Positions 15,291 to 60,711 of a stretch of DNA of 64,000 bases are shown here, piece by piece (the stretch's first letter is position 1; the number at the start of each line of letters is the position of its first letter). The stretch lies in contig OZ004609.1 in assembly GCA_963924565.1 (NCBI GenBank), forward strand, positions 20,522,001 to 20,586,000, given 5' to 3'. The position numbers and the translations under genes were made by a program. This stretch comes from Ascidiella aspersa. Its lineage: Eukaryota. The notes beneath the pieces were generated by a model. It was not told the DNA's origin. It saw nothing but the letters and a program-made list of their open reading frames with translations, and made no database searches.

Positions 15291-15331
15291 CCAACGTTTC
15301 GGCAACCTATACAAGACGCCGTCGTCAGGCA
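15291..15331 (-). ncRNA. Minimal hammerhead ribozyme-like core in the PLE 3' pseudo-LTR (possibly degenerate)
   Basis: Minus strand reads CTGACGA-cggcgtc-ttgtatag-gttgcc-GAAAC-GTT, i.e. CUGANGA / stem II / GAAA / palindromic AACGTT. Stem I pairing is weak. Confidence 0.6.
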
Positions 15332-16770
15332 CTGAACGCTCGTACAATAAATGGAAAGCGAAAAAAGAAAAAAGCAGAAACAAACGCGAGCAACGAAACG
15401 ATAAGAAAATAATTAGCGACTGCCTCTAGTCCTTCAGCAGGTGCTTGTAGCATGCAAAGGAACATCACGTCAGTTTTGACGTCCATGGTGTTACCCTTCT
15501 TATGGATGTTCCACGATTCCAAAAATAATCTTTTCCTGTAGTCTGATTCTCGTGCTGTTATTGAAGCGCCACCAAAATCAATTTGGTGGCTTCGGGAAAC
15601 AGCATGGTATGAGAGTGCAGACTTCTTTGCGTCGTTATTTGCCACGTCCTTTTGGTGTTCTTTTCGGCGAGTCTTGAATGACCTTCCGGTCTCGCCGATA
15701 TAGACCAAATTACAATCCTCGCAGGGGATTGAATATACCACACCTCGTTGGTCAAAGAACTGATGGGATCTTTGGGGTGACTCAGAAGCTTTCGAAGAGT
15801 ATTGGCAGGTTGCACACCAACCGCTATACCGAAGTCTCCCAACATACGTCTTAACACATCGGTTGGTTTTGGTATGTAGGGCAGTGTAACAAACCCATAT
15901 TTTTTCACAAAACCAACCTGCGCAACAGAATTCGGCCGGTCGTGGAGCATCTTGTTCAGGTAACCGTTGGACTTCAGGGCTTCGTGTACCTTTTTAAGTT
16001 CCACCTCGCGCTCAATGCTGTTAGAACATAGGCGTCGGGCCTGGTCCTCAAGTGATAGCACGACACCTCTCATTTGGTAAATAGGGTGATGCGAACGAAA
16101 ATTAAGATACCTGCCGGTACTTGTTGGCTTGTGGTACACTCTTGAACATAAATCACCGACAGGTCCTTGTGACTTGGACATCTAAAAATGAAAGGAGGTT
16201 TCCCTGTTGCATTTCCATGGTGAATCGAATACCTTGCTGCGCCTGATTAAGATGGTGCAGAAATAGTTCCACCTGATCTTTATCAATGACGGCAAATATA
16301 TGTCGTCAACATAACGCCACCAGAACCTTGGTGGGTTGGCAAATGTTGTCAGGGCTTCTCCTTCCATGGTCATGTTGGCGACCACCATAGAAACTGGAGA
16401 ACCCATCGCTGTACCCTGTATTTGGTGGTAACATTTCCCCCTGAATGTTAGAAACGCTGGCAGTAAACAAATTTGCAACCCAGTCACAACATCCAACATC
16501 CGGGAGCCATGGCGTCCTGTCTTTGAGGCTGTAGTCGGCCAAAATTCTGGATGACGCGATATCCATTGCCAATTCCACTGGTACACTAGTGAAAAGTGAC
16601 ACGACGTCATATGAGACCATAACCTCTTCACTGGACAGGGGAGACAATTGTGTCAACAATTTAACAAAATGTGTAGGGTTCAGAACAGTCCACTCTGTGT
16701 TTCCCACTAGCGGAGAGATGACTTTCGCTACGTATTTCGCCAAATTATAGGTTGGCGTACCAACGAACGA
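15325..16770 (-). pseudogene. Frameshifted PLE reverse transcriptase + GIY-YIG endonuclease ORF
   Basis: Fragments lie in different frames: SYDVVSLFTSVP (16306-16743), QGTAMGSPVS...WWRYVDD (16182-16631), VYHKPTSTGRYLNFRSHHP (15558-16181) and VYSIPCEDCNLVYIGETGRSFKTRRKEH...LFLESWNI (15325-15741). Confidence 0.9.
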
Positions 16771-17086
16771 AATAACGACGCAAAGAAGTCTGCACTCTCA
16801 TACCATGCTGTTTCCCGAAGCCATCAAATTGATTTTGATGGCGCTTCAATAACAGCACGAGAATCAGACTACAGGAAAAGATTATTTTTGGAATCGTGGA
16901 ACATCCATAAGAAGGGTAACACCATGAACGTCAAAACTGACGTGATGCTTTCTGCATGCGACAAGCACCTGCTGTAGGACTAGAGGCAGTCGCTAATTAT
17001 TTTCTTATCGTTTCGTTGCTCACATTTGTTTCAGCTTTTTTCCTTTTTTCGCTTTCCATTTATTGTACGAGCGTTCAGTGTCATTC

Positions 17087-20471: not shown

Positions 20472-23400
20472 CTATCGGTGATGTTCGGCTGTTGTTGCCC
20501 TTGCTGTTGCTGTATTAACCAATCTTGTTGCTGTTGATATTAGCGTTGCTTCCGTTACAATTGTGCTGACTGTAGTAACTGCGTCATTGTCGATGCTTCT
20601 AGTCTTGTCACCGATACGGACTGCGTACGTTGTAGACGGCTCTCTAGCGTTGCATAGCGCTGTGGTGCAGCACTTGTTGCGACAATTGCTGTGATTAGAA
20701 ATACAGGAAAATAAAATATGGGGTTTTGTTCAACTTGCTTGTGACTACTTTTTGTGGTCGCAAGTGAATTTAAAGATCATTTAACCTCTTATTTAGGAAG
20801 CTACCGGGTAAGGGTCGCCAAGAGTGAAGAGGAGAATATGTTTGCGGATAATACGCCAAACAAGTAATCATTATAATTCGCAACATATTTTTATACTTTG
20901 CATAATAGACAACCTGTAGGTGCCACTAACAATTTCTTTATACGTGACAATAAATAGGGAAATTATTGTAATACGTATTCGAACTGGCATTGCTGTACCA
21001 AAATGAGAGGCTCACAAACAGATTTCGATGCCATTAGCCAAACGTTCGTTCAGTATGTTTTTAATGATTAGGAAATGCCTTAAATTTTATTACTGTTAAC
21101 CAAAACATTGAACTTGTAAAAAAAAATTATAATACATGATTGTGAATTTCGGAAGTTTGTTCGTAAAGCAATTTGAACAGATGTATACCTAAGTTTATAA
21201 CGTCCTTTCAAAGTAAAGCTACTTTTTAAGAACGTGAATATAATACCAACCTAATACGGATGTTAGATCCTTCAAAACTAGAATATTTTAATCCATATAG
21301 TTGTTCATCACAAAACCGTTCATTGTTAGAGCAATCTTCAACAGTTTCGGCACACGCAAATGATGTTTGGTGATACGAAAACCACACCCCTACATTAATT
21401 TAAACTAATATTAGTTTATACATAACATCGCTACTCTTTTGCTGATTTTATTTTACTTAAATGTAAAAATATATAAATCCAATAGGCATATCTAATTTAT
21501 TGCTAATCTTAGGTAAAAACTGTAAAAGGTTAATACATAAGGCAGATGTAATACGTACATGGCTGAGATCGTTTCATGCTTACCGGTTGCTTGGGTGGTT
21601 ACATCCATTTCGTTGGTCAGGCAGGCGGTTGTGCAATAAATCTCAATTAGTGGCATTTCAAAAGAGAAGTTAACTTCTCCCATGTAGCAAGCGGTAGGTA
21701 TTCGAAGGTTGTAGTTTGCCGTCACGGCCATAATAGCTTGTGTAGGGGATGTAGTGGTCGTTATTAAATTTGGCGATATGAGGAATGTACTAGGTGTCGT
21801 TGTAAGAGTCTCCGTAGCATTGACACGAGCCGTGTGTGTGGTGATAACCGTGTAATTTCGGGTTGGATCCCTAGCATTGCATAAGGAAGTAGAGCAACAT
21901 CTGTTTCGACAGTTTCTAAGGAAAAGAGAAAAATTATACAAAAGACAAATATAGGTAAAATAAAAGCATTGCTATTTGTTTGGGATGTGATTTTAGAATA
22001 TCTCCGGCTGTATACGGCACAGAACCGGTGGACTTTTTCAAATCACTTATTTGAATATATATTTAGAATATTGAACATACAATTTGTGTTTACTTTTACG
22101 TAATTTAATTATTTTTGGTAACTTGTCTAGTGAATGTAACAATTTTAGACCAGTCATACGAACACAGTTTTCACGTCGGTTGCTTCCAAAATGTCATCTT
22201 GTATTTTATTTTGCAGGTCATCGCAAATCGGTTTGTTGTTTGAACAATCGTACAAAGTTTCGGAACAGCCAACCGAAGTTTGATGGAATGAAAATGGTTT
22301 ACCTGAATGGTTTATACGGATTGAATAGTATTTCGATATAGATGGTATTTTATACAATTCGTGTTACCCAACACTAAGGAGGATGCAAATGTCAAGCGAA
22401 TGTAGGGTAAAATAGTGACTTACCATCCACCATGAAGTTTACATCCATTTCGTTGGTCATGCAGGCAGTTGGGCAAAATACCTTGCTGAGTGGCAGTTTG
22501 TTGGCAAAATGAATTATTCCCATGAAACACGTTAAAGATGCTCCGTTTTTGTATTTGATCATAGTTGGTGCTTCTGGGGATTTTAGTGTTGTCATCGAAG
22601 GAGACAGTTCTACACTTTTTGATATTGTTGTTGGGGCTACAGCTGTTGCCGCTAAGGTTGTAGTGGTCACCTCAGCGCTTGTATCAACGGTGCCGGCTAT
22701 AGATTTATCCATGCCATTGCACAATGAATTTGTACAGCATTTATTCCGACAACTTCTGTTTGACGATACACGAAGTATAAAAAAAACAACTTAGACGGAG
22801 ACCCACAAGTATTAATTAAACAAAGTGTATACGAAAAAAAACCTATAGATTTACGGCAAGCCAAGGCATCATTTTGTTGTTAAACATATTTAACCGTTAT
22901 CATAATCGAGGCGTTTATAGCCATCAAACGAAAAAAAAGCTTCCACTAACGTGATATTGACGTCGGATGCAAAATCAGCTTGAAGGTTGAAAAAAAGGGA
23001 ATCGCAAAGGCGTTCATGGTTGTCACAGTCGTCAACATTTTCGGCGCACATTAGTGTAGTTCGATGAAATGAAAATGGTACGCCTACACGTATTTTTAGA
23101 CAAATAATAAATATATTGCATATTGATCCAGTTTATTACTTAAGCAATGCGTGTTTTTATGTACGCCTTACCAGCCGCTTGGGTGGTGACGCGAATTTCG
23201 TTGGTCAAGCAGGCGGTTGTGCAAAAAATCGTAACAAGTGGCAAATTATTGATAGAATCAATTTCACCCGTGTAGCAGGTTATAAGCTTTTCGTTGTTGT
23301 TTTGAAATATTGTTACAGATGGGGGTGTTTCTGTAGCTGTATTGCTTGTAGTTTCTGACGACGTTGTTGGCATTGCGGTTGCTTCAAATACCTTCGGTGT

Positions 23401-26400
23401 TAGAACAGCGCCGTTGTTTCGATCGGTATGGTTTGCAACAACCTCATAACTAATAGATTTATCTTTGCCGTTGCATAGCGATTTCGTACAGCATTTACTT
23501 CGACAATTTCTACCAAGATCAAATAAAAAAATGTTTGAAATGCATATAAAACATATACCTAAAACAGTGTAACAAAATATTTTTAAGAGCTGCCAAGGCG
23601 AATATATTTGCAAGAAAATGGTTGGACTTACATTAATTTCATCTCAGTATCTTCCAAAAAGATATCGTGTGTGTTATTTTGTAGATCCGCGCACGACGTA
23701 TGATTATTATTAGAGCAATCTTGCAAACTTTTGGCGCAGCCAACAAAGGTTTGGTGAAACGAAATTGGCATTCCTAGGGGCGATATACAATAATAACGAG
23801 TCAATAAGTTCTCGAACTGTTCATGATTTGAGCTAATTTTTACCAATATATGACAGCTTGTTAGTTTTTTTCTCTAGTAGCCATCTATTAGGTTGTAATG
23901 ACTTTTGTAGGTAAAGTGGAAACCGAATATTGCATGCTGTCGGCTGTAAACAGGGCACAATAACATGTTGGAAGAGCTTTATAACTTACCTACCACTTCA
24001 GAGTTCACGTCCATTTCATTGCTTAAACAAGCGGTTTTGCAATAAATCGTTCCCAAAGTTGAGTTAGTGAAAAAATTGATTTTTCCCTTATAACATAGCA
24101 TATTATGTTCTGGGTTGTTGTTGGATGTCGCTGTTACGTTGAGTGCTGAAATAGTTGATGTTACACTTGTTGCTTGTGTATTTGCATTTTCTGTTGTTAC
24201 TGTAGTTATAGCCTGTGTTGTTCGATTTAATAGTGGTGCTGTACTTTGTGTAGCGATACGTATTGTTGCTGAACTTGCGAGAAGTGTTGTTGTTGTAGTT
24301 CTTGTTGTAAGATGTGCTGTCCTTCTGGCTGTTGCTCCCGTCGATGCTGTTGTTTTTATTATTATTGTAGTAGTCAAATTCGAGTTTAATCTGGCATCTT
24401 GACCAAAGTGACTCATGGCATCGTACGATAGATTCGGATCTCTGTCATTGCATAGAGACGTAGCACAGCATCTATTTCGACAGTTTCTGAAAAAAATTGA
24501 TTCGTTTTGGCTTGTCTAATTAGATCTAAAACGCCTGAGAAAACAGGATAAGGTGATCAACAAGCCACATTTGGGACCTTCGTCTGTTGTGCACTACTAC
24601 TCATTCAACAAATTAGGTTGATTTTTTTTATTTTTAGCTCATGCATTGTTATTATGGCATTTTTTCCATAACATTTATATTAATGTAACCTGGACTTTCC
24701 TAAAAATCTGCCTGCTCGTTTTTCATGACATAATTTATTGTGATTGGTCTGTTGGTAATAAACTTACAAAATTTTGACTCTCGGATCGGCAGCTTGTGCT
24801 TCCTTATTAAGTCTGTCACATAATCGATCAGTGTTGTTGCAGTCGTCTATCATGGATGCACATGCAAATGATGTCTGGTGAAACGAAACTTTTGACTCTG
24901 AAAATAGAAATTTATAATAAACCATATACAAATTACTCGACGTTAGTCAGGTTAATTAGCGTATTTTCCAATCGTATTAATAACTATAATATTTCCAACG
25001 TGTACTGAATGCAACTTGTCAGCGTTGTCCCAGCTGTGTAAATAGTTACCGTTGCGACTCAAAATGAATTTTATTCAAGTAAAATGTAAGAAGGTGTTAC
25101 CTCTTGTTCAATATCACATATTATGCGGTGTACCATCCCGTGTGAGTTTGTAAAGCCGCGTGTTATAGCCGATGACATAAAAATGATTTTTTTCCAAAAC
25201 TATTCAACATTTAACCACACAGTACTTTACGTGTGTAGCTTGTTAAAAGTGCTAAATATTTCTTATGCCTTATGAAATCGTCATATCATTCATCAGGCCT
25301 GATATCAAACGCAAGCATTTTTGTTGGCCACTAAAAAAAATATTTTTGAAAATGCAATAATTTTTTATACGACGTACAAATAGCACTATATAGATAGAGT
25401 TATACACACCAAAAATGCAGCAATTTATGTCGTAAATTTTTTCATATTGTGTAATCGATTTTTGAAGTGACAGAAAATTTGTGGCGTACATTTTAAAATA
25501 GCAAAGGCGGTATTCGTCTGTAAAATTGCGATTTAAAATCTTTTATACCGCCTGGCCAAATATGTATCCCGATTAACGGGCCAAATGTGTAAAGCCGGAT
25601 TGAACCACAGGCTAAACGCCATTCATATTGCTGGAAACCTCCAGGTGTTAATAAGGAAAAAAAGGCTCACCGATGTAAGGCCATATACTGAAGCAATTTT
25701 TAATAAGCGCCACATTAAACGAAATTAGTGCACTTATTGCCTGTACCTTTGCAGACAAAAAGTATAACAATAATATTTAATCTCCGTTGGTGGCAGGAAC
25801 GGAACTCAGCGGGAGCACCAGACATGCAATAAGTTGGCGAAAAATTCTATGTCGCCTTAAAACATATAACAAAACTTGCTTGACCCACAGGGTTGTCTCG
25901 GCAATAACAATTAATTCAATAAACTTAATATTTAACTAATAATACTCCTATTTTGTCGTTTTTCTCTTTATGTATATCAAACCGTCTTTAATTAATCACT
26001 GTTTGAGTATAGTAAGAAACTCAGTAAATGCATATAGATTGAAGTCCGGTGGTCGGCAACCTATGGCCGCGGCCAGTCAATATATATCATCAGGCCCCCA
26101 CCTTTTACAAACTGGACACTAAAGTTTAAGGTTGCGCGGTAAAAAATTGCGTTTATTACAAATTGCGCAGTAAATTTTCGTTTTTGCGCACACCATTTCT
26201 ATTTTAAAATGCAAAAAAATATTTACACTTTTTATTATCGACTGTGACGTAATACTTTGTAAATTATTGTGCCTTATCGGTTTTTATCAATATTGCTATG
26301 TGTTTTATCTGAGGATAAAGTAAAATGGATCTTTACTGAAAAACTAGAAATATATAATAATAAATCAATAAAATAAATAATCGCGGACTTCCACGATCAC

Positions 26401-28186
26401 ACATAGTTGCTGAAATGATTGGTGAAAACAACATAGCGCATAGTTTAGTTATTCGTATAACAGTTGAATTGAATGTATTATCATTCAGTAAAACGACAAT
26501 CCAGTGACTATACTTACCGGCCGTTGTAATGGTCACGTCGATTTCATTGGTCAAACAGGCGGTTTTACAGGCAACTTGGGTGATAGCAGCACTGTCGAAG
26601 TTGATTGTTCCGCTAAAGCACATGGCAGGACCCGTTCGGTTGTCATGGTTACTGCTATTGGTGATGCTGGATCTTGTCAATGAACTTTTACTTGTGGCGA
26701 CCATGAGACGAGTGCTAAGTGCTGTTGGAACGGCTGTACTTGGACCACTGTCCACCGAGTAAGGGCCTCGCGGTGCATTGCAGTTATCGGTTGTGCAACA
26801 GGTTGCCGAACAAGCTCTAAGAGTATATATTCTGCCAGGGTTTGTCTGTTATACAACTCTTATTTAAAAATTCAGAAATGGTAAAAAAAACTTTCAAATA
26901 CAAAAGATGAGCCGTCGATTTTGTCATTTTAATAAACACTGCACCGATGAATTTCCCCATAGGGGGGAATTTTTAAGTTTAAGAGGGGATTTTGACTAAA
27001 TAAAGCACATTCTAGTTGGGGGTTATATTTACGTGCATATATGCATATTGATGAAAGGTATGAGCAGAGCCCAATTCAAAATTTTAACCATGCAGGCCTT
27101 TTTCGCAAGCAAGAAAAAAATTGGGTAAAGTGTACAGTTCCTTATTATTACGTTCAGCAGCATAAGGTGTACTTTACCCCAATCTGGCAGCAATGTTTGG
27201 AGTGCTGCTCTCGAGAAAAAAAAATCGTAATTCATTGCATTGTTTTGTAGAATTGCACATAGATTCCTCGTAGATGCAGTCAAAACTTGTTTCACGAAAA
27301 CTCGGGTAGGCTTAAATCATAAAAAAACCTTAGTTTGTCACGAGTTATTTCACTGAATTCGTAGCTATCTATGAACACCATATCAATTAAAAAGTGCCAC
27401 GGCCTGAAAAGTTTAGGAACCCCTGAGATGTTTCGTACTGAAGGCGCGAATCCAGGATTTTCGCCGATCCAAGATTTTTTTGAGGGTGGGGAGATTTTTT
27501 TAGATGTGGCGTCACAAAGGTTACATCTTTTAACGTAACTTCATAAAAGGTAACCATAAGAGCATACGGTTGGTTTATTTTGCTAAAATTACAGGTTTCA
27601 GATGTGTTCGATTAATACAAAAGCTACATTTTGAAAATGTTATCGATTTACGCAAAAACCGCCTTTATATCGTTTAAGTTGTCAAAACTTTCATTTTAGA
27701 GGGTGGGATGAGGCGCACGACTCCTTTTTTTTAACCATTTCACAAAACAAACATAGGTATACTAGAAACATAATGGAGGTGTGCGAAACAGTTTTACATT
27801 TCCGTGGTTAAAATAGACAAAAAAATGCAGTTTGAGTGGGTCATGGTCACGCGCCCCCCATGGATCCGCCCCTGTTAATAGACCACTAAGGCTATAGCAT
27901 ATTTAAAACTTGTCTTTAATCCTCAGGTTAAGGATTATGGTTAACAGTCTATACTAGAGTTTTCTTATATCAGCATCGGCATAAATGACATAGAATACAT
28001 AATATACGCACCTGTATCAGCTATACTCAGCGTGTATTCGACTCTCAAGCAGCGAAACGGACAGGAAGCAATGAATGTGCTGTCACTATTAAAATTTTTC
28101 ACTCCAATTGTGCAGGTCACGCTAAGCACGAAGTCAGCTGCCGACGATAGAGCAAGAACAGCGTACAACCAATTCTTCATGTTCAT
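20472..28186 (-). CDS. Gene A: secreted protein with 6 tandem 10-Cys Ly6/uPAR (three-finger)-like domains and Thr-rich mucin-like linkers, ~1001 aa
   Basis: 13 exons: 28186-28012, 27310-27178, 26816-26518, 24897-24768, 24486-23990, 23773-23632, 23509-23172, 23083-22951, 22755-22424, 22302-22164, 21915-21584, 21389-21251, 20688-20472. Sum is 3006 nt with alternating phase 1/2 GT-AG introns. Signal-peptide-like N-terminus (MKNWLYAVLALSSAADFVLS). Repeated motif C-[YF]-x-G-x-I-N-F...C-x-T-A-C-L-x-N-E-x-D-V / F-S-F-H-Q-T...C...C...C / N-C-x3-CC-x4-CN. AATAAA on the - strand near 20403-20408. Confidence 0.88.
27441..27873. mobile_element. Probable non-autonomous DNA transposon remnant (Harbinger-like termini) in intron 1 of gene A
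   Basis: Imperfect TIRs AGGCGCGAATCCA... / ...TGGATCCGCCCCT; TSD not clear. Confidence 0.45.
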
Positions 28187-33087: not shown

Positions 33088-36000
33088 ATGCACTACTTCC
33101 TGTACGTAGTCGCTCTCTTGTTGTCCTCGATCGAATGTTCGCTCGCAATAATTTGTAGATCGGGAGTACAAAACTTCAACTCTGGCGAAGTTAATTCTGT
33201 AACATGTAGTTCTGTGACCCAACGCTGTTATAGGACGGAGTATATTGTGGATGTTACAAATACAGGTACGTGCTATCATTCCTACCAATGCAAAATATAG
33301 GACAACTATATACAAAGCCCACCGTTAGCCCGAGTTAATTTTCTTTTACCACGAAATACCGTAAATTATTGTATTTGTATCGAAGTTGTAGTTTTTTTTT
33401 AGTATAAGCGTGTCTCGCTTTAATAACCAGATTTTTATATTAAAGCCAATCCCACAAACTTTCGGCAAACCAGTTACGGCTGCGTGTTATCGCCACAGAC
33501 TTGCAATTCTGCAATAAGGTGCGACAGTTTGAGTAAGGCCTTTCGTGAAAACAACACGCCCGGTTTAACTTTGAGCATAAGGTATGTTTACTTTGATTTA
33601 AGTTCGGTTTGACTTTATAGTTATTTAAAGGAAATGCTTTATGTTTTTATTTAAAAATGAAGCTGATGTTTAAAAGGTTTTAGATATAATTTAAATTTTT
33701 TCCATGTGTTTAATTCGTTTTTAAAGTAACCCAAAAACACTGCTATCAAAATACATGCCCTCTTTTTTAAACTCTTTAGAGATTGTTCGACAAGCTGTTG
33801 CAACACCGATAACTGCAATGCACAACGTGGTCTTTATGCGGTGAACAGTGGCTCACGCACAACTGTTCCGCCAACAATCAGCACTTTGATGGTCGCCACA
33901 ACAACCAGCACTTTGGCAAGATCCAGCGCCACCATAAGCAGCAATCCTGTCAACCAACCAGGCTCAAATATGTGCTATAGCGGAGTGATTAACTTTGCCA
34001 CAAAAAAAATAACTCAAGTAGCTTGCAAAACCAAATGCTTGACCAATGATATTGACGTTAACGCAGCGACGAACGGCAAGTGCAATAAAACTATTGATCA
34101 GTTAAATTTAAATTACAAGTACATGTAAAAAAATTGTATTGCGTGTTTTCATTATCGTACTTTTTAAAGCCGGTGGATAATAATGCTATACGAATTTCTA
34201 AACTTTTTCAAAAGAAAGTTAATCAATATACTTGGGTACACTATGCACGGATCTGTAATGTAGCTTGATAATGAATTGCAAAGAACGAACTGAACGTTGA
34301 CACCTTATTAACACCGCTGTACCTGTTCAACACCTGAAGGTGCTAAATAATGCCCCTACTTTTGAAACTCAGATTGATAACAATTGCGTCCCATCTCCTA
34401 TAAGTGATGCTTGAAATGCTTTTCAGTCGCATTAACTAAAGATTATACAAGCTCGTGTCAAAACGTCTTAATCAAGATGCTGTTGATTTACTCGACCTTT
34501 TTGGCTTTGCAATTTATTATAAAGTTAATCAGATGTGTAGAATATCACATCCTGTCTCACGATATGTTGGAAAGGTAGAAATAATGTGTAAATAAGTATT
34601 AGCTATCAAGCTATGCATCACTGTCACCAGCGGGGGGTTTATCGCCATGTTGATAGACCAGGCGTAAGCTTGGGCTATTTGTTAAGAAGAACTTTTCTGT
34701 TGCAGGAATATCATTTTCCTTCCATCAGACTTCTTTTTCATGCGCATCCAATTTAGACGATTGCGACAACCAACGTCGCTTTTGCAACACAGTTCGAAGA
34801 GAACTACAAAAAGCCCTTCCGATATCAATAGACGTCTCTGTTATGTAAGTGCATTTAAAATAAAAACAAATTGTATCACATGAAAATCACTTATTCGGTA
34901 ATGTTTGATAAAATTAAACATGTCAGAATACGTTATTTTGTTTTTTAAAAGAAACTGTCGAAACAAGTGCTGTACCAAGTCGCTGTGTAACGCCAGAGAT
35001 CCTTCTCTTACGTACAAACGCTTAGATGGCCACATTCTTCCAAACGCTGACTTCAATGTCGCTGCAACTACTGCCAGAACAGTAGAAACTATCACGACTA
35101 CAACAATAGCACCAACTACAACGAACACTAATGTCGTTAGAAGACCTTTGTCCTGTTACTCGGGAGCAATCAATTTTGCCGTAAACAGGCCGCTAACCAA
35201 AGTTTCATGCTCAACCGCCTGCTTGACAAACGAAATAGACGTCAACTCCGAAGTAAATGGTAAGTAAAAGGTTAACATATTGTGATGCTATTTTGTGATT
35301 TTCGTTCATAAAATTAAAGAAAGAAGGCCTTCGTAAGCTTTTAATTTCAAGTTAATAAGGTGAACAAATACTTCTATGCCAAAGAATATATCCAAATAAC
35401 GCAGCCGATGATATGTTTGTGAATGTAAATAGTAGTCCTATATTTAAACGAAACTTTCTCGTATTTTTTTTTTCGATGTCGTAATTATTGCGTATTGAGA
35501 TCGTTTTTTCAAAAGTTGGCAAAACATTGTTGTAAACCAAACATTTTAAAATACTTAAGTTCCAGTCAAGCCACTTTTAAAACAACTTAAGATCAATTTA
35601 TTTGCAAAAAGTAGTATGTCAAGTCTACGCCAGTTAAGTCAAAGTCAAATCCTGGACATCGGTAATAAAGTTCGTATAAACTCGCCCAATCCAGATCAAT
35701 CATTCAATTAGCAAACAACAACAAAAACAGAGCAAGGAAAACATGATTATTCTTCAACAAACATATTAAAATTATTGTGTTGAAGTCAAGTTATGCTATA
35801 AAGACAAATCTCAAAGTCAGTCATTTCTACAAAAAACTCCACAAGTTAAGTCACGTTGCACAGAAGACATAGTCAATTTAAGTACTTTGTTTGGTTTAAT
35901 TATTGTCCTAAAACCCCTTAAATTTTCTTATGCATTTGAAACAAGAAGTGACGGAAATCTACCTTTTTTCTCAGGGTTCAAGTATTCTTTTCATCAAACC

Positions 36001-39000
36001 GTTTTTTCATGCGTATCCGATGTGGCCGAATGCAACGATCACAAACGCTATTGTGACGGAGTTCGCAGTGACCTAGAAAAAGCCGGTTTGAAAGTCTCAG
36101 TGGTGTGAGTATAAAACGTGTTCTATCAAATTCGATTGAAAAAGATGTGCAACCTTTTATGCCGACGAGCCAAATACGCGTATTCGGATTAGACCGCAGA
36201 CCAAACGGATTTCTTATCGTTTATATCAGATTACCTTACCACAGGGGTTCTTTAACTTTTTCTAACGCGGACCCCTAACACTTTTTTTGGCCTCGCGTGG
36301 ACCACAATAGGCAATTTTTTTTTTAAATGACGTCATGAATTTACGTCACAATACAAATAGACTTTTTAAGTCTGCTGATTTCGGTCCAAAAATGTGAAAG
36401 GGTGACGGAGTTTAATGCATTCAGTGCAATACCGGTTTATTTTTGATTAAACTGTTGTGTTTGTAAAATTGATTACTTCTTAACTATACACTAATATTTC
36501 AATTAGGCCTTCATAGACCCCTAAAACTAGGTGACGGATCCCTAAGGGGTCCATGGACCCCAGTTTAAGAACCCCTGCCTTACCAGAAAGGCTGTCAAAA
36601 ATATTCTTTATTGGTGTCTGCAAAAAATGCTCACCCACGAATGTTTTTTTTTATTTTAAAATCTAACGTAGATCGTACTTGGCTTAGCTATACGTTGGCA
36701 ACAGTGTGTTGGAAAACTAATTCATTGTTTTACTTGTTATTTCATTTTATAGTAACTGCAAAATCAAATGCTGTTCCACGCCATTGTGCAACACCAGAAA
36801 TCCTTCTCTTGCGTACAAACGCCTGGATGGCCACATTTCTCAAAACGCCGACTTGTTTGTCGCTACAACCACTGCTATTAGAATCCCAACAACAGTTACA
36901 CCGGCAATACCCTCATTGACGACAATATCGCGCAGCAGTCCTACTTTTTGTTACCAAGGAGCGATCAATTTTGCTGTGAAAGGTCCACTTAAAAAGGTTT
37001 TTTGCCAGACCTCCTGCTTGACCAACGAATTAGACATAAACTCCGAAGCAGGTGGTAAGTAAAGCAGGGACTTCGACCGTAAGACCAAAACTAAAACGAC
37101 ATCAACATCAAAATAAAACACAATTCGGGATAAGACCAAAATCGGACTAATATACCTCGTCTAATCAGAATATGACCTAAAACGGTCGGAATTAGACCTA
37201 AATGGCCAAAATATGACCTATACAACCTTTTTTCTAACCCAAAATCATACCTATAGCTTCATCACCAACTCCAATAATGCCAACCCTTACCTAATGTCTA
37301 ACCCCACCCAGTTTTCGTCCCAAACCCAAAACAGGGGCAAACAATCCGCAGCTCAAAAAGCGGTGCCTCATCACGTCGTTTAAATTATCGTCCAACGCCG
37401 ACACCAAAATGCCCCAATGGTCACACACCCGCTCCCCACAGTTTATGGCGTTACTTAGTCCATTTAGGCGTTATCTGATGATTTAGGACTTATTCAGACA
37501 GGTTTAGGTCGTATTTCAAACTAGTTTAGTTCAAATCTTTTTCACTACAAGTTTATTTAAAGGCCACCGGAAAAAAGTACGCCTTTAAATTTCATGTTAT
37601 ATAACAGAATTCTGCGTACGACCTTTCTTTGAAAATTATTATGTAAGATTTCAACGACACTTTTTACACATCATTTTTTCAGTGTAAAGCTTTTTATAAA
37701 CTGTTTTATTCCGTGCTAAAATCTTAATTGGCTTATGTCAATAATTTTTGAATAGCGATTTATTTAGAATCGAGCAACTTTTGTCAGTGTTTTTATGTTT
37801 TACCTTTCCTCAAGGACTCCTATGACGTATACAGCCTATGGGGGCATTTCATAGAAAATTATACCTATATCTGTCTGAAATATAGAAGTGTGAGTCAATT
37901 CATAATATAAATATGCTTTTAGGGACTAAGTTTTCATTCCACCAAACTTCGTTTTCATGCGCATCCACTGCGGACGAATGTGACAATACCGATCGCACTT
38001 GTAATGCAGTTCGCAGTGAACTACGGAGAAGCGGACTTGACGCCACAGTTTTGTAAGATACACACATGTGCTAAAAAAACTAAACTTTTTGTATTTAATG
38101 CTAAAAAGACAACTTTATGTCAACTTTCTGTGTACGGTTTATAAGCCTTAACCTATTAATGATGATTGATTACTATAGAACAGAAAAATGTATGAACAAA
38201 AAAAACATATAAGGAAATAACAAATTATTGTTTGTATATTAATACTATAGCGTTCGACAGAATTCATGTATCGTCTCCTACCTTCATTTGTACCAACGAC
38301 TTAAAAGAGAAATCAATTTTATATTATAATTCTGCAGAATAAAAAGGTCGTGAACAGTACTTATCTACGAAAGATAGACTAGAACCTAATCAAATTATCG
38401 TGTTGTTGTTATTTTACAGAAATTGTCAGATCCAATGCTGTAGTACGTCGTTATGTAACGCAAGAGATCCTTCTATGATTTACAAACAATTACCCGGACA
38501 CATTGCTCCGAATAATATGGGTCCTGAACGGGCTACGACTACGGTTAAAAGTACCACATCAACGACCACCACGACCCAAAGACCCGCAGTCACAACGACA
38601 GTGTCGGCACAAAACAACCAATTGAGTTCAATTTCTTGTTACAAAGGAGAGATCATGTTTTCCAAACAATTGCCACTAAAAAAAGTTTTCTGCACAACCG
38701 CCTGCTTGAACAACGAGTTGGACGTAAATGCTGATGCGACTGGTAAGCACTGCTACATTTTTTGTATTGTCGCTATTGTTAAAAATCCGTGGCTTGCGTT
38801 ATGTTATTTTTATTTAAAAATATTTAAGCAATAATGTTATTTATAGTTGTTTGTAAAAGTGTCACTGTGATAACTTAAACCGCCGTGCTCACCATTTGTG
38901 TTAATTATATTGTAGGGGTGAAATTATCTTTCCATCATAGCACATTTGGCTGCGCTGAAACTTTGAGCGATTGCTACGACAATGATCGATTTTGCAATGA

Positions 39001-42000
39001 ACAACTAATCAATTTAAAAGATGAAATTTTGCTTGCGACCAACATCAGTATCATGTTAGTACAAGTTTTGTAAAAATATATCACCCCGTGTTTAGTATTT
39101 TTTCCGGGCTACCCCCTTAAAAAACACGCCAATCGTAGGCTTGGCTCACATAATGTAAATCCGAACTTTCGCCAAATTTACAGAACATTTCGAAACCGCG
39201 ATGTTTTGTCAGAAAAGATGCGCGTACAACTGTGCCATAACGTAACGCAATAATCTGGCATACGTCAGACATAGCTGTAAAGGTGGAAATTATCTTAAGA
39301 AGAATTACCATTATATAGCACTACAGAAAAAAATATGAGCCTGTAAAAACATGTTTACTAAAAGGTAAAAAGGAGCAATTACATGTTTTCTTCATTCCAT
39401 TGTGTTTGTTCAGCAAAAAACAGCTATTTTTCTTATGCTTAAATATGCCTGGTAAATTAACGCCCAAAGAGTTAAAGAATCTAAAAGTATCTTTTGTAAC
39501 TGTCTAATGCGCCATACGTGGTTAATCTACTATATATGCATAAAGGCACGAAGTAAATGTAGCTAACCGCAACCTAATTTACATTGATAGTCATTTTTCA
39601 AGGCAAATTTAAACGCAAAATTAAATAGTAAAAGCACTTTTATGTTGCAACTTAAAATAATCTGGAACAACACCGAAAGCCATTGCAGACTCACCGAATC
39701 TGTCGATCAATGATGCAAACAGAGCAGGCTATAAAAACAACTAGCCTGCAGTGAGGTTCGAACTCACGACCTCCGGTCAAGCCGGGACCGTCGCTCCACC
39801 AACTGTGCTATGCAGGCCCAGAGAGGAGAGAGTCGAGAAACAACAAACCCGGAACAAGTACGAAAATATTTGTTTAACTATTTCCTGTTTTATCACAGAA
39901 ACTGTCGAAACAAATGCTGCCAAACATCCCTATGTAATGTAAGAGATCCCACCCTGACGTATAAACTTAGCACAAGTCACGCTAAACCCAACGGTGAGCC
40001 AGGTGAAATTACTACCGCTGCTGCCAGAGTTATTGTTGCGGTAACAACGACTCCAATGCCAGCAGCAACAACAGAGACCACAACAAAATCAGCGCTGATC
40101 ACAACCGTCGGAAATACAAACGTCGTAAACTACCAGAACCCGAAAACTTGTTATAGTGGATCGATTAGCTTTTTAGGGGAAACAATATCCGAGGTTCCCT
40201 GCAGGACGGCATGTTTAAGTAGCGAAGTAGACCTCAAAGGTTCTTCGTTTGGTAAGTTGGAAAAGTTATGTTTTCAAAAGAGTTTGATTTGTATAGGAGT
40301 ATGTTTTTGTCTGTCTTTGTAAAGTTCTTTGGTTAAATATTTAGACGTATGGGCTTATATCCGATATATTTGTAAACCATGACAAAACATCACTTTGCTC
40401 CAAGCAGGAAATTTATGTTTGTTGTTTGAGGCAACAAAACGTTATTGAGCAATTCTCAAACTTTTCGACCTGTTTATTTGCCTCCTTTGAATCCATGCTT
40501 AATATAGAACCCTTTAAAATTTAACAAAAAAAATATCAACAATTATAACCTTTCAAATGATTTATAAATTATCATTTTGAGAACCATGTTTTAGAGCAGT
40601 TTTCGTTTATTTATTTTGCTTTACTTGGTGCTAAAAAAAACATTTTAGAGTTATACACTGAAAATGTAAATACCTTTACATGCAGGAAACCCATTTTCGT
40701 TACACATGACGGTATTTGCGTGTGCCGATAACACGCAACAATGTGCAGATGACGACCAAATCTTCTGCAAATCTGTAAAACCTTTGTTGAAACAATTGGA
40801 CACGGGGATGTCCATAACAAACATTACTCTACAGTAAGAAATATGCATTAAGCAATACGGTTACTTTAGGCGTATTTTTTAGAGAGACATTAATGCAACA
40901 ATGTCAGGCCTGTGATAGACTATATTGTTTTCAGCCTTACGTCGGCGAGTTGTGAACTTAGAGGTTAAATCAGGAATACTAGTAATGTGGTCCATCAGTA
41001 AACGCAACAAAAATTGTATATGTAGTAATTAAATTACTATCGTATCGTGTTACACACGTGGTGTTTTTACAAAGGTTGTTTTGTTAAGAAACGATACAAA
41101 AGCCATTTTTGGTCGCTGAACGTGTAGCGCTTTAATCGGCACAGTCCTATTCGACAAAACTAATCAGAATTAAGTTTGGCGTTCGCGGGTTGGACAGTTT
41201 TCAGAGATTAAATCGCTCAAATTTAGATGTTTTTTAAATATTTTAGCTTTAAAATTTATTGCAAGCCTAAAACGAGATGCATAAGTTTTTTTTTACAAAT
41301 TCTCCCACAGAAAGATTGTAAAAATGTTTTTCTTGTAAAAATTTGTTTTAACAGAAATTGCAAAATATCATGCTGTTCCACGTCCCTGTGCAACGTAAAA
41401 GACCCCTTTACTAGCTATCAATTGTATTTCGACGTGAGTGGTGTAAACAGCGGCAGTGTTAACTCAGTAACAAGTACTGTCAGTTCAAGAGCAATAACTG
41501 CAACGAGTGCAGGAAGTTCGGGAAAATCATTAACCAGGTGTTACAGTGGTGCGGTAAATTTTGCCACAGAAAAAATTCAATCGGTCAAATGCACCACGGC
41601 CTGTCTGACAAGCGAACAAGACGTACATTTCAACACTGGGTCAGGTATAAGGCCTATTCTTGTGTCACTAATTCGCCAGTGCAAAACCGTTTTTTACTGT
41701 ATACTTGAATAAAAATCTTTTACATTTTTTGTTTGACCATTTCATAGAAATTTACCTGATAAAATCACACCAAATTGCACCTTGTTTTTAATGTTTTTAA
41801 TGCATTATTGTTATTTTTAAACAGGAACACCGATTTCCTTTAAACAGATGACTTTTGCTTGCGCCCCAAGTCTCAGTGTTTGTATTGGTCAATCATTTTG
41901 TAGATTATTTGGAAATTCTTTACAAAATTTGGATATCTCTTCTTCTGTTCGTGACTTAGAAATTCGGTAAGTTAACTCTCGGTAAATCCCATTTCATTGT

Positions 42001-43585
42001 GAGAATAAAGGTCTGTAACAAACAAAATATTTTCGTAAAAAAATAAATATTTGGTTTTATAAACAAGGATAGACATTTTTATTGCAATGAACAAACGGTA
42101 AATCAAAACTTACAGTTGTCAATAATTTTAACTTCGTACGTGCGCACTCCACCAGTGAACAGTGTGTGACTGCTAGTTTTGGCATGAAAATGTCATTAAA
42201 TAACACATTCTAAGTACACCAAACTGATCTTTGTTGGTTGGAACATCAATTACCGTATTTTTGCAACCAAAACTGTTTGTTTCCTATAGAAATTGCAGGA
42301 CCAAATGTTGTACCACCACTCACTGCAATGCCAAGGACCCATCCGCAAAGTTTGAATTAAATTCTATACCGTCTTCTGGAGGCGTTGACACTGGTCTCGA
42401 TTTTTCTACAACAACTTCGCTTGCCATGAAAACAACTACAGCTGCGACAACTGTGACAACAACTGTGACAACACCTGTGGCAACAACTTTGGCAACTAGA
42501 TACAACAATAACGCTAAACCGATAGTATGTTACAGTGGAATAGCCAATTTCGACACAATAACGCGAAAGCCGGTCAATTGTACCACTGCCTGTTTGACCA
42601 ACGAGGTGGATGTGGATGTTGTCGCACAGGGTAAATCTCTGCCACCTGATTTTGACATTACGTTACATTATAATATTATGTTACTTTTTTGTTTTAGCTT
42701 TTTAGAGAAACACGTAATTTAATTACTAATATGAACTATAAATTAAATTCATTTCAGAAGCATCCTTTTCCTTCCACCAGTCTACATACTCTTGCGCGAC
42801 AAGCCTTGCAGATTGTTATGTCAGCCGTTTGTGCGATGCAGTTGCAAGTGATGTAAGAGGAATGGACCTTGGATTGACTGTGTCTAGCATTAAAACTCAG
42901 TAAGCTGTTTATAAATTATATTATTTGAGAAAATTAGGTGTCAACAAACCCAATATACTAAATTTGATCACTGTGGAATATGGGCACCGAAATTTACAAT
43001 TGCCACTTTGTCACTTATTTATCACTTTCATAACCAATGTTTTTAGAAAAAGTAACAAAATAAACTTTTCAATACCAATTTTGTTATCTCAGAGGAAAAC
43101 GACATTGGCCATCCCACATATAACAATCATTGTTTCGGCCGTTGGCCTTTGGTAATTTGCCTATATTTATTAAGTTACAATGTCAATGATATCTGTCTTT
43201 ATACGGGGCTCAAATGGAACCTTCTGAATTAGCGACTCACATACTGAGCTTTTTCGTGAGCAGCATCATAACTTGCTCCGCTTATAGTTTGAACCTAATT
43301 GTTCGTTATAACTACTGTAAAACTGGGACGCGCTTCAACCGAACAAACACTGTACGGTAGGCCTACTAACAAACTAACTCGAGCCCCTCAGTAGACTCAA
43401 AAAAGAAAAGGCAACCAATAGATAAAACGCTTATAATTCTCTGCACCAGTTTTCCCAATGCCAGTGCGCAGTGCCAATAAACTATATACTATTTTTACAG
43501 AAATTGCAATACCAAGTGTTGCAACTCTTCCTACTGCAACAGTAAATCATCAACAAATGACTATGAACTGGTAATGAACCCTTAA
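33088..43585 (+). CDS. Gene B: secreted protein with 8 tandem 10-Cys Ly6/uPAR (three-finger)-like domains and Thr-rich mucin-like linkers, ~1193 aa
   Basis: 17 exons: 33088-33265, 33446-33581, 33780-34075, 34706-34844, 34952-35259, 35975-36104, 36753-37054, 37923-38052, 38420-38742, 38916-39054, 39899-40251, 40686-40833, 41355-41644, 41825-41966, 42290-42630, 42758-42899, 43501-43585. Sum is 3582 nt with alternating phase 1/2 introns, one with a GC donor. Signal peptide MHYFLYVVALLLSSIECSLA. Ends NCNTKCCNSSYCNSKSSTNDYELVMNP* with no hydrophobic tail. AATAAA at 43792-43797. Confidence 0.9.
36242..36577. mobile_element. hAT-type MITE in intron 6 of gene B
   Basis: TIRs CAGGGGTTCTT / AAGAACCCCTG; 8-bp TSD CCTTACCA (36234-36241, 36578-36585). 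Confidence 0.9.
39665..39817 (-). mobile_element. tRNA-derived SINE-like element (tRNA-like head 39744-39817)
   Basis: Minus strand GCCTGCA-TAGCACAGTTGG (A box)...GTGAG-TTCGAAC-CTCAC (B box/T arm)-TGCAGGC with a perfect acceptor stem but an aberrant anticodon loop. The adjacent body is shared with a second copy at ~56665-56765. Confidence 0.75.
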
Positions 43586-46341
43586 ACGGATGACACCAGC
43601 GTCAAAAACTTCATTTCAATCTCTTCGCTAAAACAAAAATAGTTAAAATGAAAAATTCTGTACATTACATTCATGAAGTTCATGCAGTTTACGTGATTGC
43701 TATTGTAAATTGCTTGTTATTTTTGTCAAACACGATATACATAAATACGTTTGTGTCCTTATAAAAAGTTCGGTTATTTCTTAGAGAATGAAATAAAGTA
43801 AACTCTTTGCTGCTTTAAGGTTTTCCGGAAGTGGTTGTGGTTTTATAGAACACTGAACAACTTTTTTCGACCTAAATATGGAATACCGATACCACCATAA
43901 AAATGATTTGACGCAAAATCCAATCAGGCCGCTGTAAATCATCAAAAAATATTGGTTATTTGGTACCGGACAGTTATATTTGGTACCGGACAGTTATAAA
44001 AAATGTGGCTTCGTTGCAAATCCTTTTGGAGGGGAATCAAATATTTGTGTTACCTTGTTTGGGGTTATTGATGTTAAAATTATTAGGGAAGTTGGTAATG
44101 TACTTAGGGTTGGGGTTCGGCTTTAGGTGAAGTGTTGTATAGGCCAGATTCTGGTCATTCGGTGACAAAAGAACCATGAAGACCACGACACACTCACGCA
44201 TTTCTTTGCGTGTCCTACACATTTTTACCTGAAATAAATTTTTCGATTATATTCAATGATCAACTCCTAAAGATTTTAGTTTAACAAAATCGCACAATAT
44301 TTACTGAGGAAAAGTTACTAAGTAAGGTAATCAACCAAACACAACAAATCATGCGTGCGTCTTGATTGCGTAATTAGCTGTTTGATGATGTGCTTAACTA
44401 AGTCACATATCCGTATCCCACTTTAACGGTATTGCATTACACCAGCTCCCGCAAAATTATACGATCATTTGAAAAGTCTTTTTGTGCAACTTTGTAGGAA
44501 AAAACACATAGTTTGAGAAAGGTGTGGCCTCGTGCTACACTCGATCCGCCTCTCATGGTTATTGACAAAAACAATGTTTTAAACCTTTGGCATTTTTTAT
44601 TAATTCAGTCGCTCTTTGTGTGCCACCTTAAAACTGGCTTAAGGAACCGAAACCACCTAAAGGCAATTCAAATTCTCACTTTCCGGTTTAGTACCGCGAA
44701 ATTTGCTGCAGGGTATTATTGCTACAAATTTTACTTCAGTGTCGTAACTTGGGTGTTTCCTACATGTGCTTATCATGGGGTCTATTGCACTATTGCCTGG
44801 AAGATAAAGCTTTGCCAAAATAACAGTGGTTATCATCATAAGACCCTCCCAGAAGGCAATATGGTCAACGGCGGATTTTTATATTATTATTTAATCAAAG
44901 TTTTAGTTTATGTGATCCATTCGCCGTAACATTCAATACATAAAAATGAGTAATTTGTTTTTAGTCCTGCATTGCACTTTTACACTGGGTTAGGCTATTT
45001 GTTAAGTAAAGTATTTCACAAAGTTATTTTGTTGGTATTCCCAACATTTGGTTTATTTTGTGTTAATTGCAATAAACCAGCATTTGTTTAGCCCTTATGA
45101 TATCTGTTAGGAATGGATCTGTTTACTTGAACGATAAAATAGCCAACCGTAAATATTGACCTATTTTGGCATGTATGCCGGTATGTACAAAGATTTTTTT
45201 GTCCTGTGCGCAAATTTTGTTTGACTTTCGATTGATTTTACACCAGCCCTGTTCAACTTAAAATGATAGCAGGGCCGAAACAAGCAAAATCAATTACGCG
45301 GGCGGCATACTAAAATTGAATGACAATTTTTATGGGATGACGATACAAAGTAACATGACATCATAAAACATTAATCTTAAAAACAACAGTTATTGTCGAG
45401 CGACCTCGTGCGTGAGTTTGCAAGTGAAATGCAGTCTAATCGCGCGAAGAGGGAAAGAAACTGCGTTTATTAGGTTTAAACTACTCGTACCTTGTGCAAG
45501 TCTGATTTAGACCAGTGTTTGGCGTAATGAAACATTTTGATGATTTGGCTAAAAGCTGAGGACCACCTAACCAAGCCAAATCATAAAATAGATTAAGTTT
45601 AGGGTAAGTCGTCGTTTTAATAAACAGCAGGTAAAGTCACACCAATCAAACAAAAATAAATTCTTAAAGGATACCATTTTCCCTTGGCAGAGCAAGCGTA
45701 ATTTAACTAAACACATGCTAGAGAAACTGTTCTTCGTGTAAAAAGCTGAAAGAAACGAGACACCTTGGCAATTTTTTTTAAATCCAACAATATCTTGTAG
45801 CGCAGTTTTTGGAAATTACAATAAATTAAGCGTCGAAGCTACGTATGTGGGTAATTTATTTTTCATTAAAGCGTTAATCTTGCGCATGGAAAGTTCATAG
45901 ACCACTCTGTTGATTCCCGGTCGAGAAACACTGATTTAGGCCGTTAAGAATAATTTGTATTCTATGTATATCGGAGATACTTTCATCAATTTACTGCTTT
46001 TTTTGTTTGCAAGATCGAAACATTTTGTTCTTTGGTAAAATTGGTTTTAGCAAATCACATATTTGTATAAATCACATATTTGTATAATTCTTGTACTTTT
46101 GTATTCAAGACGCCGGTGACAACATATTCGACAAAAAACAGAAAACCTTACGACCAACAAAACTGTCGACAGTGTGACGCTAAAGGGCATAAATAAAAAA
46201 GGGAAGAAAATATAAAGGATAGAGAGTTAGAGTTTAGACAAAGACAGGCGAGGAATAAAATTATTTGCGTCTTCCTAATTCCCAGTTTGCGACAAAAAAA
46301 CACCCAGACATGCATTAGAACGAAAACACACTTAATCCGTC

Positions 46342-59031: not shown

Positions 59032-60711
59032 ATGTCAAAATGGAGCAAGATCTTTGTCGTTGTTTGGGCCATTCTGGTAAACGTACTCATTATGGGACCT
59101 ATCAAATCAATGGGAATATACTTTCTTCCGTTTCAAGTGGATTTAGAATCCAGTGCTAAACAAGTGTCGATGGTATTGTCACTTATTTACGGCACCTACT
59201 TTCTAACTGGTAAGTTTTGTGTTGTCCTAGCGCTTATTTGTGAATTAACTTGCTGGTAAACTGTCCCCCGAAACTAACTAGTAACTAGAAGGAATTTTAT
59301 TTACTGCAACAGATAGACTCAATCAATGCTGATATGGGCGTTTGTCATATTTAAAAACACATTGTACTATATGACCAGCAATATTATAAGTAGTCCAACC
59401 ATGGAGAATTGCTGCAGGGCCACTGGCAACGATCTCTTGTAACCTTATTGGTTATAAGAAGACCTCTTTGCTGGGTACGATGGTGGCTGGTTTAGGCACT
59501 TGCGTGTCATGCCTTGCACCATCGATAGAAGTCGTGTACGTCACACTTGGATTATGTATAGGTATGTTGTTTGCTTTACGAAACAGCGTGTTAATATTTT
59601 ATTAAAGGGTGTGCATTTCACTAGTAAAAGTAGCCTGCTACAGGTCGACTAAGAAATATTTTAGCTAGTTTAACGTGTAAGCCCCTTTGATAATAACTTG
59701 TCTAAAATGGAGCTATTTTGACATTTTACTGAGGTGTTTTTTTATTGTTACATTATAGGATCGGGCGGATGTCTGGCAATAACGCCAACCTACGCTGTCG
59801 TCGGGCAACTTTTCACTGACAAGCGACCGTTAGTAAACAACCTGGTGACGATGGGCAGCGCGTTATCCAGCATTCCTCTCGGCTTGCTTGGGCAGGTTTG
59901 GATCGATGCGTATGGCTGGCGCGGCTCAGTTCTGTTGATGGGCGGATTGCTGCTGAACGCCTTGCCTTGTTCGCTAGCTATGATGAACGTTGCTGCTCGA
60001 TGCGACGCTACAATGTTTGCCAGTAAGCGGAAGCTGTTTGACACCGAGTTGATCAAGTCACCACGCTTTATATTGTATTGCGTGGCATGCGGTTTTCACG
60101 TGGCTAGCATGGTGATTATTTCTACTTACTTGATTCGATATGCGCAGTCGCGCGACATTAACGATTTAGCGGCGGCCGGACTGTCCTCTATTATTGGCGC
60201 CGTTGATATCACTCTGAAACCGATATTTGGTTATTTAATGAGCCTGCCGAAAATATGTCGGATTTCTGTCAACCGCTCGTACTTTTTTGCTTCCAGCGTT
60301 TTGGTACAGTCTGTAATTACACTAATGCTCCCTTTTACAATAGAATACGTTCACATAGCTGTTGTGGTGGTCGGCTACGCAACCTGTATTGGTGTATGTG
60401 GAGCCTTGCCGATCACTGTGCTTTCTGACTTGTTTGGTCCCGAAAAACTGCCTACGTCACTTGGCGTGCGAGCACTTATAGTGGGCACTTTTGCTCTGTC
60501 TTCACCCCCGCTAGTTGGCTTTGCAGTGGATGCAAGTGGTAGATATTCGACCCCATTTTACGTGAGCTCCGGAGCCGCGGCGTGCTGCGGAATCCTTTTA
60601 TTATACGTTGTTTGTATCATGACAAAAAAAGAACACAATGAAAATAGTTCAGATCGCGTTATAGAAATTAGGGAAAGTCCAATAAAAAGGGACTCGCCGA
60701 GTACACAATAG
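59032..60711 (+). CDS. Major facilitator superfamily transporter, monocarboxylate transporter (SLC16/MCT)-like, ~424 aa
   Basis: Exons 59032-59209, 59418-59561, 59759-60711 (1275 nt, in frame). About 12 hydrophobic segments. MCT-like motifs GQLFTDKRPLVN, YGWRGSVLLMGGLLLN, DLFGPEKL and PPLVGFAVD. Confidence 0.88.

Follow-up and report, generated by a model that had tools for sequence, protein, structure and literature searches.

How do arrays of protein domains grow when every exon border falls inside the repeated domain, and does such a layout generate new protein forms? The question is raised by two head-to-head genes in a stretch of 64,000 nucleotides (nt) from the ascidian Ascidiella aspersa (GenBank assembly GCA_963924565.1, contig OZ004609.1, forward-strand positions 20,522,001 to 20,586,000; hereafter the window, to which coordinates refer unless another contig is named). 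Gene A (33088..43585, plus strand) is modelled as a protein of 1193 amino acids (aa) with a signal peptide and eight ten-cysteine domains that resemble Ly6/uPAR (LU) domains (hereafter LU-like), separated by linkers rich in serine and threonine, and gene B (20472..28186, minus strand) is predicted to encode a signal peptide and six such domains in 1001 aa.

We read A and B as likely secreted LU-like arrays that would have grown through unequal recombination of the ordinary kind, acting in at least two registers, with gene A following a single splice path in the RNA examined, and we put the probability of this reading at about 0.7. A preliminary description of the locus had proposed that such arrays grow by duplication of a short plus a long exon, and that skipping of this pair, or variation in its number, could diversify the protein. 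The family is of interest because it displays two ways in which repeats can grow: junctions within exons, which yield whole domains, and out-of-register crossovers, which yield hybrids.

Exon layout of genes A and B

Splice-site scanning and translation gave a model of gene A with 17 exons and 16 introns in one open frame. The 12 introns of gene B (13 exons) are predicted on the basis of an open frame and GT-AG ends only, and three of its donors (exons 8, 10 and 12) look weak by eye. Intron phases alternate 1,2 across all 28 introns of the two genes, and every one of these introns lies within a ten-cysteine domain, with none in a linker. Two introns, the first of phase 1 and the second of phase 2, divide each domain among three exons: the middle, short exons measure 130-148 nt, while the long exons combine the C-terminal third of one domain, a linker (48-117 aa, 28-38% Ser+Thr) and the N-terminal third of the next. 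On both the phase pattern and the content of the two exon types, the gene models bear out the preliminary description. That exon borders lie inside domains is likely explained by a family without an intron at the domain edge.

At the start of gene A, exon 1 (33088..33265) carries the signal peptide and the N-third of domain 1 with no intron between them, exon 2 (33446..33581) the middle of domain 1, and exon 3 (33780..34075) the C-third of domain 1, a linker and the N-third of domain 2, followed by a GC-AG intron. DNA profiles of the N, middle and C pieces, run with nhmmer over the window, returned exactly 14 of each at E < 1e-5 and no spare exon copies; a candidate orphan middle exon within intron 3 of gene B was rejected.

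Hybrid domains and routes of growth

A block of likeness in gene A begins at the middle exon of domain 2 and ends with the N-third of domain 5, spanning three short+long units. The middle exons of domains A2, A3 and A4 are 66-68% alike and the N-thirds of A3, A4 and A5 69-74%, against 58-62% between the N-third of A2 and those of A3 and A4, and 48-49% between the middle exon of A5 and those of A3 and A4; linkers 2, 3 and 4 group together. A short+long triplication is likely the best explanation of exon pairs 4+5 (34706-34844 and 34952-35259), 6+7 (35975-36104 and 36753-37054) and 8+9 (37923-38052 and 38420-38742), each placed by the gene model, RNA and similarity. As exons 4-9 look like such a triplet, domains 3 and 4 are likely hybrids, with an N-third of A5 type and a middle and C-third of A2 type.

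Site counts follow this pattern. Sites of A4 that match only A2 or only A5 number 7 and 22 in the N-third and 37 and 11 in the middle exon (Fisher 1.1e-5, the best of 1320 tests), and the corresponding counts for A3 are 9 and 17, then 31 and 10. A one-codon insertion in the N-third is common to A3-5 and B3-6 and absent from A2 and B2, and third codon positions concur with a hybrid reading of A3 and A4. Under a single tree with linked branch lengths, the signal was reproduced in 0 (A4) and 1 (A3) of 300 simulations, and the 41 discordant triplets observed at p < 0.01 were never reached (simulated median 7). Of the separate segment trees, which the preliminary description had proposed for the detection of chimerism, that of the middle exon rejects A3+A4+A5 (approximately unbiased (AU) test, p 0.0025), and that of the N-third is compatible with A2+A3+A4 (AU p 0.18).

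Several results weigh against hybrid origin. Under a null in which each segment has its own branch lengths, and which was fitted to the very signal under test, 10-13% of 143 simulations reproduce the A3/A4 pattern and 60% reach the smallest p. Most branches are weakly supported; Mantel tests between segments favour no register (r 0.32-0.46, full sets); and the triplet A2/A4/A5 was chosen after inspection of the data. An alternative is that all duplications were of whole domains, in register, and that the apparent hybrids of A and B reflect rate differences between segments or later single-exon gene conversion. The surviving free-length null and the permissive N tree agree with this alternative, as do the three in-register changes of domain number traced in paralogues (below) and the middle exon of B3, which is like that of B5 with switches on both sides, as expected of conversion. 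We nevertheless consider it unlikely, given that the linked-rate null is rejected, that third positions and the insertion fit hybrids, and that long exons 5 and 7 are alike throughout, linker included (70.7% over 341 nt, the best whole-exon DNA match inside gene A), with linkers 2, 3 and 4 forming a group. A hybrid origin of A3 and A4 thus appears quite probable from these comparisons.

In gene B, mosaic borders occur at introns of either phase, the middle of B3 resembling B5 and its end B4, so no single cassette accounts for it. The end of gene B (20472-20688), comprising a C-third, a linker and a stop, resembles an internal long exon minus its N-third, and downstream domains may therefore have been lost.

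Paralogues elsewhere in the same genome (G000) record further junctions. A cluster on contig C3 (7.17-7.30 Mb; loci L001-L014 and L020) contains more than ten one- or two-domain members, with recent duplications, hybrids, premature stops, and both polar tails and tails like those for glycosylphosphatidylinositol (GPI) anchors. On contig C2, three-domain and two-domain members with the same exon layout occur at 27.794-27.800 Mb (L016-L017) and 30.378-30.385 Mb (L018-L019), and the three-domain gene looks like an independent expansion. One or two domains laid out in three exons, followed by a hydrophobic C-terminal tail, are typical of most paralogues (tails were judged by eye). In two-domain paralogues the long exon begins with an end of first-domain type, whereas in A and B each of the 12 C-thirds outside the first domain scores better against C-thirds of terminal type than against those of first domains. 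Because internal long exons have this terminal-type end, copying the pair of a two-domain gene would be insufficient and joining within an exon would be needed, on the assumption that the two-domain form is ancestral.

A recent in-exon junction of this kind lies at C3:7181920 (with a copy at 7205861), where 143 bases correspond to a terminal exon and the rest to a long exon, with 3 bases shared. In two more in-exon junctions in paralogues, a signal peptide is joined to the second domain or to the linker of that domain. All three changes of domain number traced in the cluster are in register, with the junction inside an exon. Recent hybrids are also present on C3: one switches within 7193650-7193693 (26/0 then 3/82 sites) and another within 7254376-7254354 (38/4 then 8/67 sites), one switch lying either in the final 40 bases of the phase-1 intron or just within the start of the middle exon, and the other 18-40 bases into the middle exon. 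Two of the 12 second-domain units of the C3 cluster inspected for switches were positive, and an orphan pair of middle and terminal exons in the cluster begins within a phase-1 intron. Breakpoints thus track sequence likeness rather than introns.

On the sequences compared, then, pair copying is not the only growth route, and in-exon, in-register junctions contribute as well. Duplication of a short+long pair, as first proposed, likely holds for exons 4-9 of gene A and is not supported as a general mechanism in view of the in-exon junctions and the mosaic gene B. The accompanying claim that growth makes chimeric domains likely applies to A3 and A4 and fits the two recent paralogue hybrids, whereas whole, non-hybrid domains would arise through in-exon junctions. 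Some observations temper this picture. An in-frame stop interrupts codon 25 of the gene that gained the new long exon, which may therefore be a pseudogene, near-identical pairs of C3 paralogues could be uncollapsed haplotypes, and loss of a boundary intron could alternatively have made the first long exon.

Under growth in more than one register, a one-domain ancestor would have comprised three exons (signal peptide and N-third, middle, C-third and GPI-like tail), retaining the phase-1 intron that LU genes have in the tip of loop 2, together with a second intron of phase 2, and with none at the domain boundary. In-exon junctions, as seen in the paralogues and presumed for A and B, would then have joined a domain end to a linker and the next N-third, producing long exons and whole, non-hybrid domains. 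Among the resulting tandem copies, crossovers at or near the border of N-third and middle would likely have copied short+long pairs and left hybrids such as A3 and A4. The copies in A and B have diverged (synonymous divergence, dS, about 0.7-0.9), and the array is now likely fixed. Hybrid domains would likely be a by-product of ordinary gene recombination, not a generator of diversity.

Nebulin and cadherin are known cases of repeats whose exon borders fall within the domain; the authors note that any of the duplications could have had its break in an exon or in a domain, which leaves the matter open for nebulin (PMC1553488). Genes A and B resemble nebulin in having borders inside domains (28/28 introns) and an exon block that repeats with the domain; they differ from both nebulin and cadherin in the domains and unit sizes involved, and in that recent paralogues here show both kinds of breakpoint directly.

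Splicing and copy number of gene A

RNA for gene A came from X4, a set of raw reads (about 6% of the run) chosen by species label, and from X3, treated as RNA on account of its spliced contigs; none of the runs listed for the locus is recorded as RNA. Depth was 1-24 reads per joint, joints with fewer than 3 reads are unlisted, and contigs drop rare forms. Among the joints listed, at least 13 of the 16 junctions of gene A are directly supported by X3 and X4 together. For exons 8-17, X4 recovers all nine predicted junctions in 87 reads, with 9 further reads that carry an allele at the last of them, and X3 contributes one unbroken spliced contig of 2359 nt that starts at the end of exon 7 and runs into the 3' untranslated region. 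This part of the gene includes, beyond exons 8 and 9, exon pairs 10+11 (38916-39054 and 39899-40251), 12+13 (40686-40833 and 41355-41644) and 14+15 (41825-41966 and 42290-42630), as well as exon 16 (42758..42899), which encodes the middle of domain 8, all placed by model and RNA. Exon 17 (43501..43822), with the C-third of domain 8, the stop at 43585 and an untranslated region reaching at least 43822, is defined by the X3 contig. Upstream, support for the GC-AG intron 3 (34075-34706) comes solely from an X3 contig, the only sign of intron 6 is that a contig measures 987 nt, and introns 1 and 2 are not among the junctions listed at this low depth.

In the RNA examined, gene A is spliced along one path. 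Two other joints were rejected as splice variants: 37967-39899 (3 reads, CT..AG, out of frame) is explained by reads of exons 4-5 misplaced on paralogous exons, and 42897-43501 corresponds to an allele at the exon end. The low depth (about 6% of one run), at which rare joints and forms escape listing, leaves room for skipping that is minor or specific to some tissues.

These data bear on the possibility that the short+long pair is a unit both of growth and of regulated skipping, yielding hybrid-domain isoforms or copy-number variants. The triplet in exons 4-9 and the hybrid domains of the paralogues are what this would predict, and the statement in the preliminary description that any adjacent exon pair keeps the frame is correct: all 24 adjacent internal pairs of A and B sum to a multiple of three. 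This regularity is arithmetic and no sign of design, however, because a repeat consists of whole codons with conserved introns. No single internal exon preserves the frame (0/26), so skipping would require two coupled events. Across exons 8-17, where the table of joints is complete (nine junctions, 87 reads, low depth), there is neither an exon-pair skip nor a mutually exclusive form, the window has no spare exons, the array has the same eight domains in two DNA-like runs (below), and in-exon junctions are both required and observed. That the pair is the unit both of growth and of regulated skipping is very unlikely, and the combinatorial isoform diversity once thought structurally possible was not seen in the RNA examined.

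Dscam is an exon-modular alternative splicing system; the A/B family gives no evidence of a splicing-based receptor repertoire. In NLRP3, according to the parts of PMC6642158 available, single 171-nt leucine-rich-repeat (LRR) exons keep the frame and their skipping is observed. A and B share frame-preserving exon units with such LRR exons of NLRP3 and ribonuclease-inhibitor type, but here only pairs preserve the frame, and no skipping is seen.

The suggestion of copy-number polymorphism found no more support. In X1, which may be the source sample, and X2, both of them DNA-like runs, the contigs carry the same eight gene A domains in the same order, breaking mostly at intronic repeats, and neither run has a twofold depth step across gene A, although depth is not a copy number. 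The closest repeat units are separated by a dS of 0.74-0.88, and introns of the same class, apart from one marginal pair, do not align above shuffle level. With repeats so diverged and introns not alignable, unequal crossover inside gene A today appears unlikely. Coding differences number at least 20 in 3582 nt (among those listed, 8 silent and 12 replacing), and gene A is not visibly hypervariable.

Domain affinity, function and neighbouring features

Comparisons with published LU systems rest on partial texts of the papers cited. An LU domain is defined by ten Cys with Asn after the last, bonds 1-5, 2-3, 4-6, 7-8 and 9-10, and 60-90 residues, and LU genes by a signal exon and two exons per domain, with phase-1 flanks and one further intron inside the domain, in the tip of loop 2 (PMC6600238). 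Like the multi-LU proteins uPAR, C4.4A, Haldisin and CD177 (PMC6600238, PMC6337849), A and B have tandem domains of about ten Cys ending in CN, and the family shares with them a signal peptide, GPI-like or secreted forms, clusters and apparently a phase-1 intron in a matching place. All 14 domains of A and B end in CCx4CN, with Asn directly after the last Cys. The domains have about 95 residues and ten Cys in a different spacing, lack a counterpart of the 2-3 pair, carry two additional Cys further on, and match no LU profile. The LU standard of two exons per domain with a retained boundary intron is also absent, each A/B domain having three exons and neither a boundary nor a signal intron. Genes A and B have 6-8 domains, against 2-4 in the named vertebrate proteins, and starfish LU proteins have at most two in the text available (PMC11595613).

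The genome's own LU genes provide a closer comparison. On contig C9 (L022-L029), at 8.34-8.38, 23.95-23.99 and 4.0 Mb, tandem multi-domain genes with Pfam UPAR_LY6 matches resemble A and B in their ten-Cys domains ending in CN and their internal phase-1 intron, and differ in having two exons per domain, all phase 1 (predicted splice sites) and in register. The phase-1 acceptor lies 29-32 nt before the S/G-C motif in the family and 29-44 nt before it in Pfam-matched LU genes of this genome, the Cys correspondence being inferred. This suggests that the family's phase-1 intron is the old LU intron, that a phase-2 intron was added and that the boundary intron is missing.

Profile tests speak against LU affinity, all of them (Pfam, family scans and hhalign) being negative. 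Pfam gave no LU match for exon pieces, where power is low, nor at these loci in genome-wide scans with PF00021, PF17064 and PF01064, and hhalign of spliced domains against the genome's own LU domains reached a probability of 0.56%, within shuffles, with nothing shared beyond the CN end. The middle exon folded alone, and thus as a partial domain only, gave two helices (predicted template-modelling score, pTM, 0.37) and no PDB match. The domain might be a cysteine-rich module of separate origin whose CCx4CN end arose by convergence, a view consistent with the missing profile and PDB matches, the departure from LU gene structure, the absence of a CxxC pair at the domain start and a predicted 14-residue helix in the middle exon. 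We find this view doubtful, as the terminal CN, the signal peptide directly before the first Cys, the GPI-like tail and the clustering fit LU, as do the phase and place of the first intron, and LU variants have been described that lose the 2-3 bond or gain a bond on strand E (PMC6600238). Taken together, the signal peptide, the gene clusters, the GPI-like tails and the CCx4CN end suggest LU domains; we call the domain LU-like, likely of three-finger type, and do not file it as an LU member.

No homologue outside the genome was found by word-based exon alignment (longer proteins only), a HMMER profile of the long exon or PDB sequence searches, whose power is weakened by exon pieces and linkers; Atlas leads scored 0.80 or lower. 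Our literature search, from which subscription journals mostly fell outside, found no paper on the A/B family, ascidian or otherwise, nor on exon-pair hybrids in LU genes. Most PF01064 (Activin_recp) matches in the genome proved false and come from a transfer RNA (tRNA) array. This tRNA-Val tandem array (C3:10.49-10.69 Mb; L034-L036) has a unit of about 200 bases, with 15 genes in 3120 bases of L035.

In both A and B the top hydropathy window is the N-terminal hydrophobic stretch, the C-ends are polar, and hydropathy gave no membrane or GPI tail. From these features we tentatively infer that A and B are likely secreted, O-glycosylated, multivalent extracellular binders, and they may perhaps be soluble counterparts of the GPI-tailed one- and two-domain paralogues. 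All 55 pairs of C3 paralogue domains have a ratio of nonsynonymous to synonymous divergence (dN/dS) below 1 (0.20-0.96) and so show no overall positive selection, which, together with the low listed allelic variation in gene A, does not suggest a locus of allorecognition type. LYPD8 has a stalk rich in serine and threonine. It is a glycosylated mucosal protein of the LU family, single-domain and GPI-anchored, in the vertebrate gut (PMC5725809), and a possible functional analogue of A and B to which no sequence link is shown; by this analogy, a role in surface or mucus recognition can be guessed at.

Should the fold prove to be three-finger, A and B would stand out among LU-like arrays by their unusual length and by a gene structure that departs from the LU standard, and their natural hybrids would reveal which halves of the fold are exchangeable. 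One could go further and imagine that these recognition proteins, three-finger-like and confined to one lineage, make up a family not described before: the absent boundary intron would let recombination exchange finger 1 against the remainder of the domain, paralogue clusters would go on producing new binding surfaces, as in the recent C3 hybrids, A and B would be frozen multivalent arrays of such hybrids, and tissue-specific pair skipping would be possible; we hold this to be rather unlikely.

Gene A also contains a high-copy tRNA-derived repeat in intron 10 (39670-39844), in which ARAGORN places a tRNA-Ala at 39742-39818, and further high-copy repeats in introns 3, 6 and 7. Elsewhere in the window, fragments of a retroelement resembling reverse transcriptase were noted by eye at 15328-16797 on the minus strand, and a long open frame at 59722-60708 looks, by eye, like an exon of a membrane protein that we take to be of monocarboxylate-transporter type.

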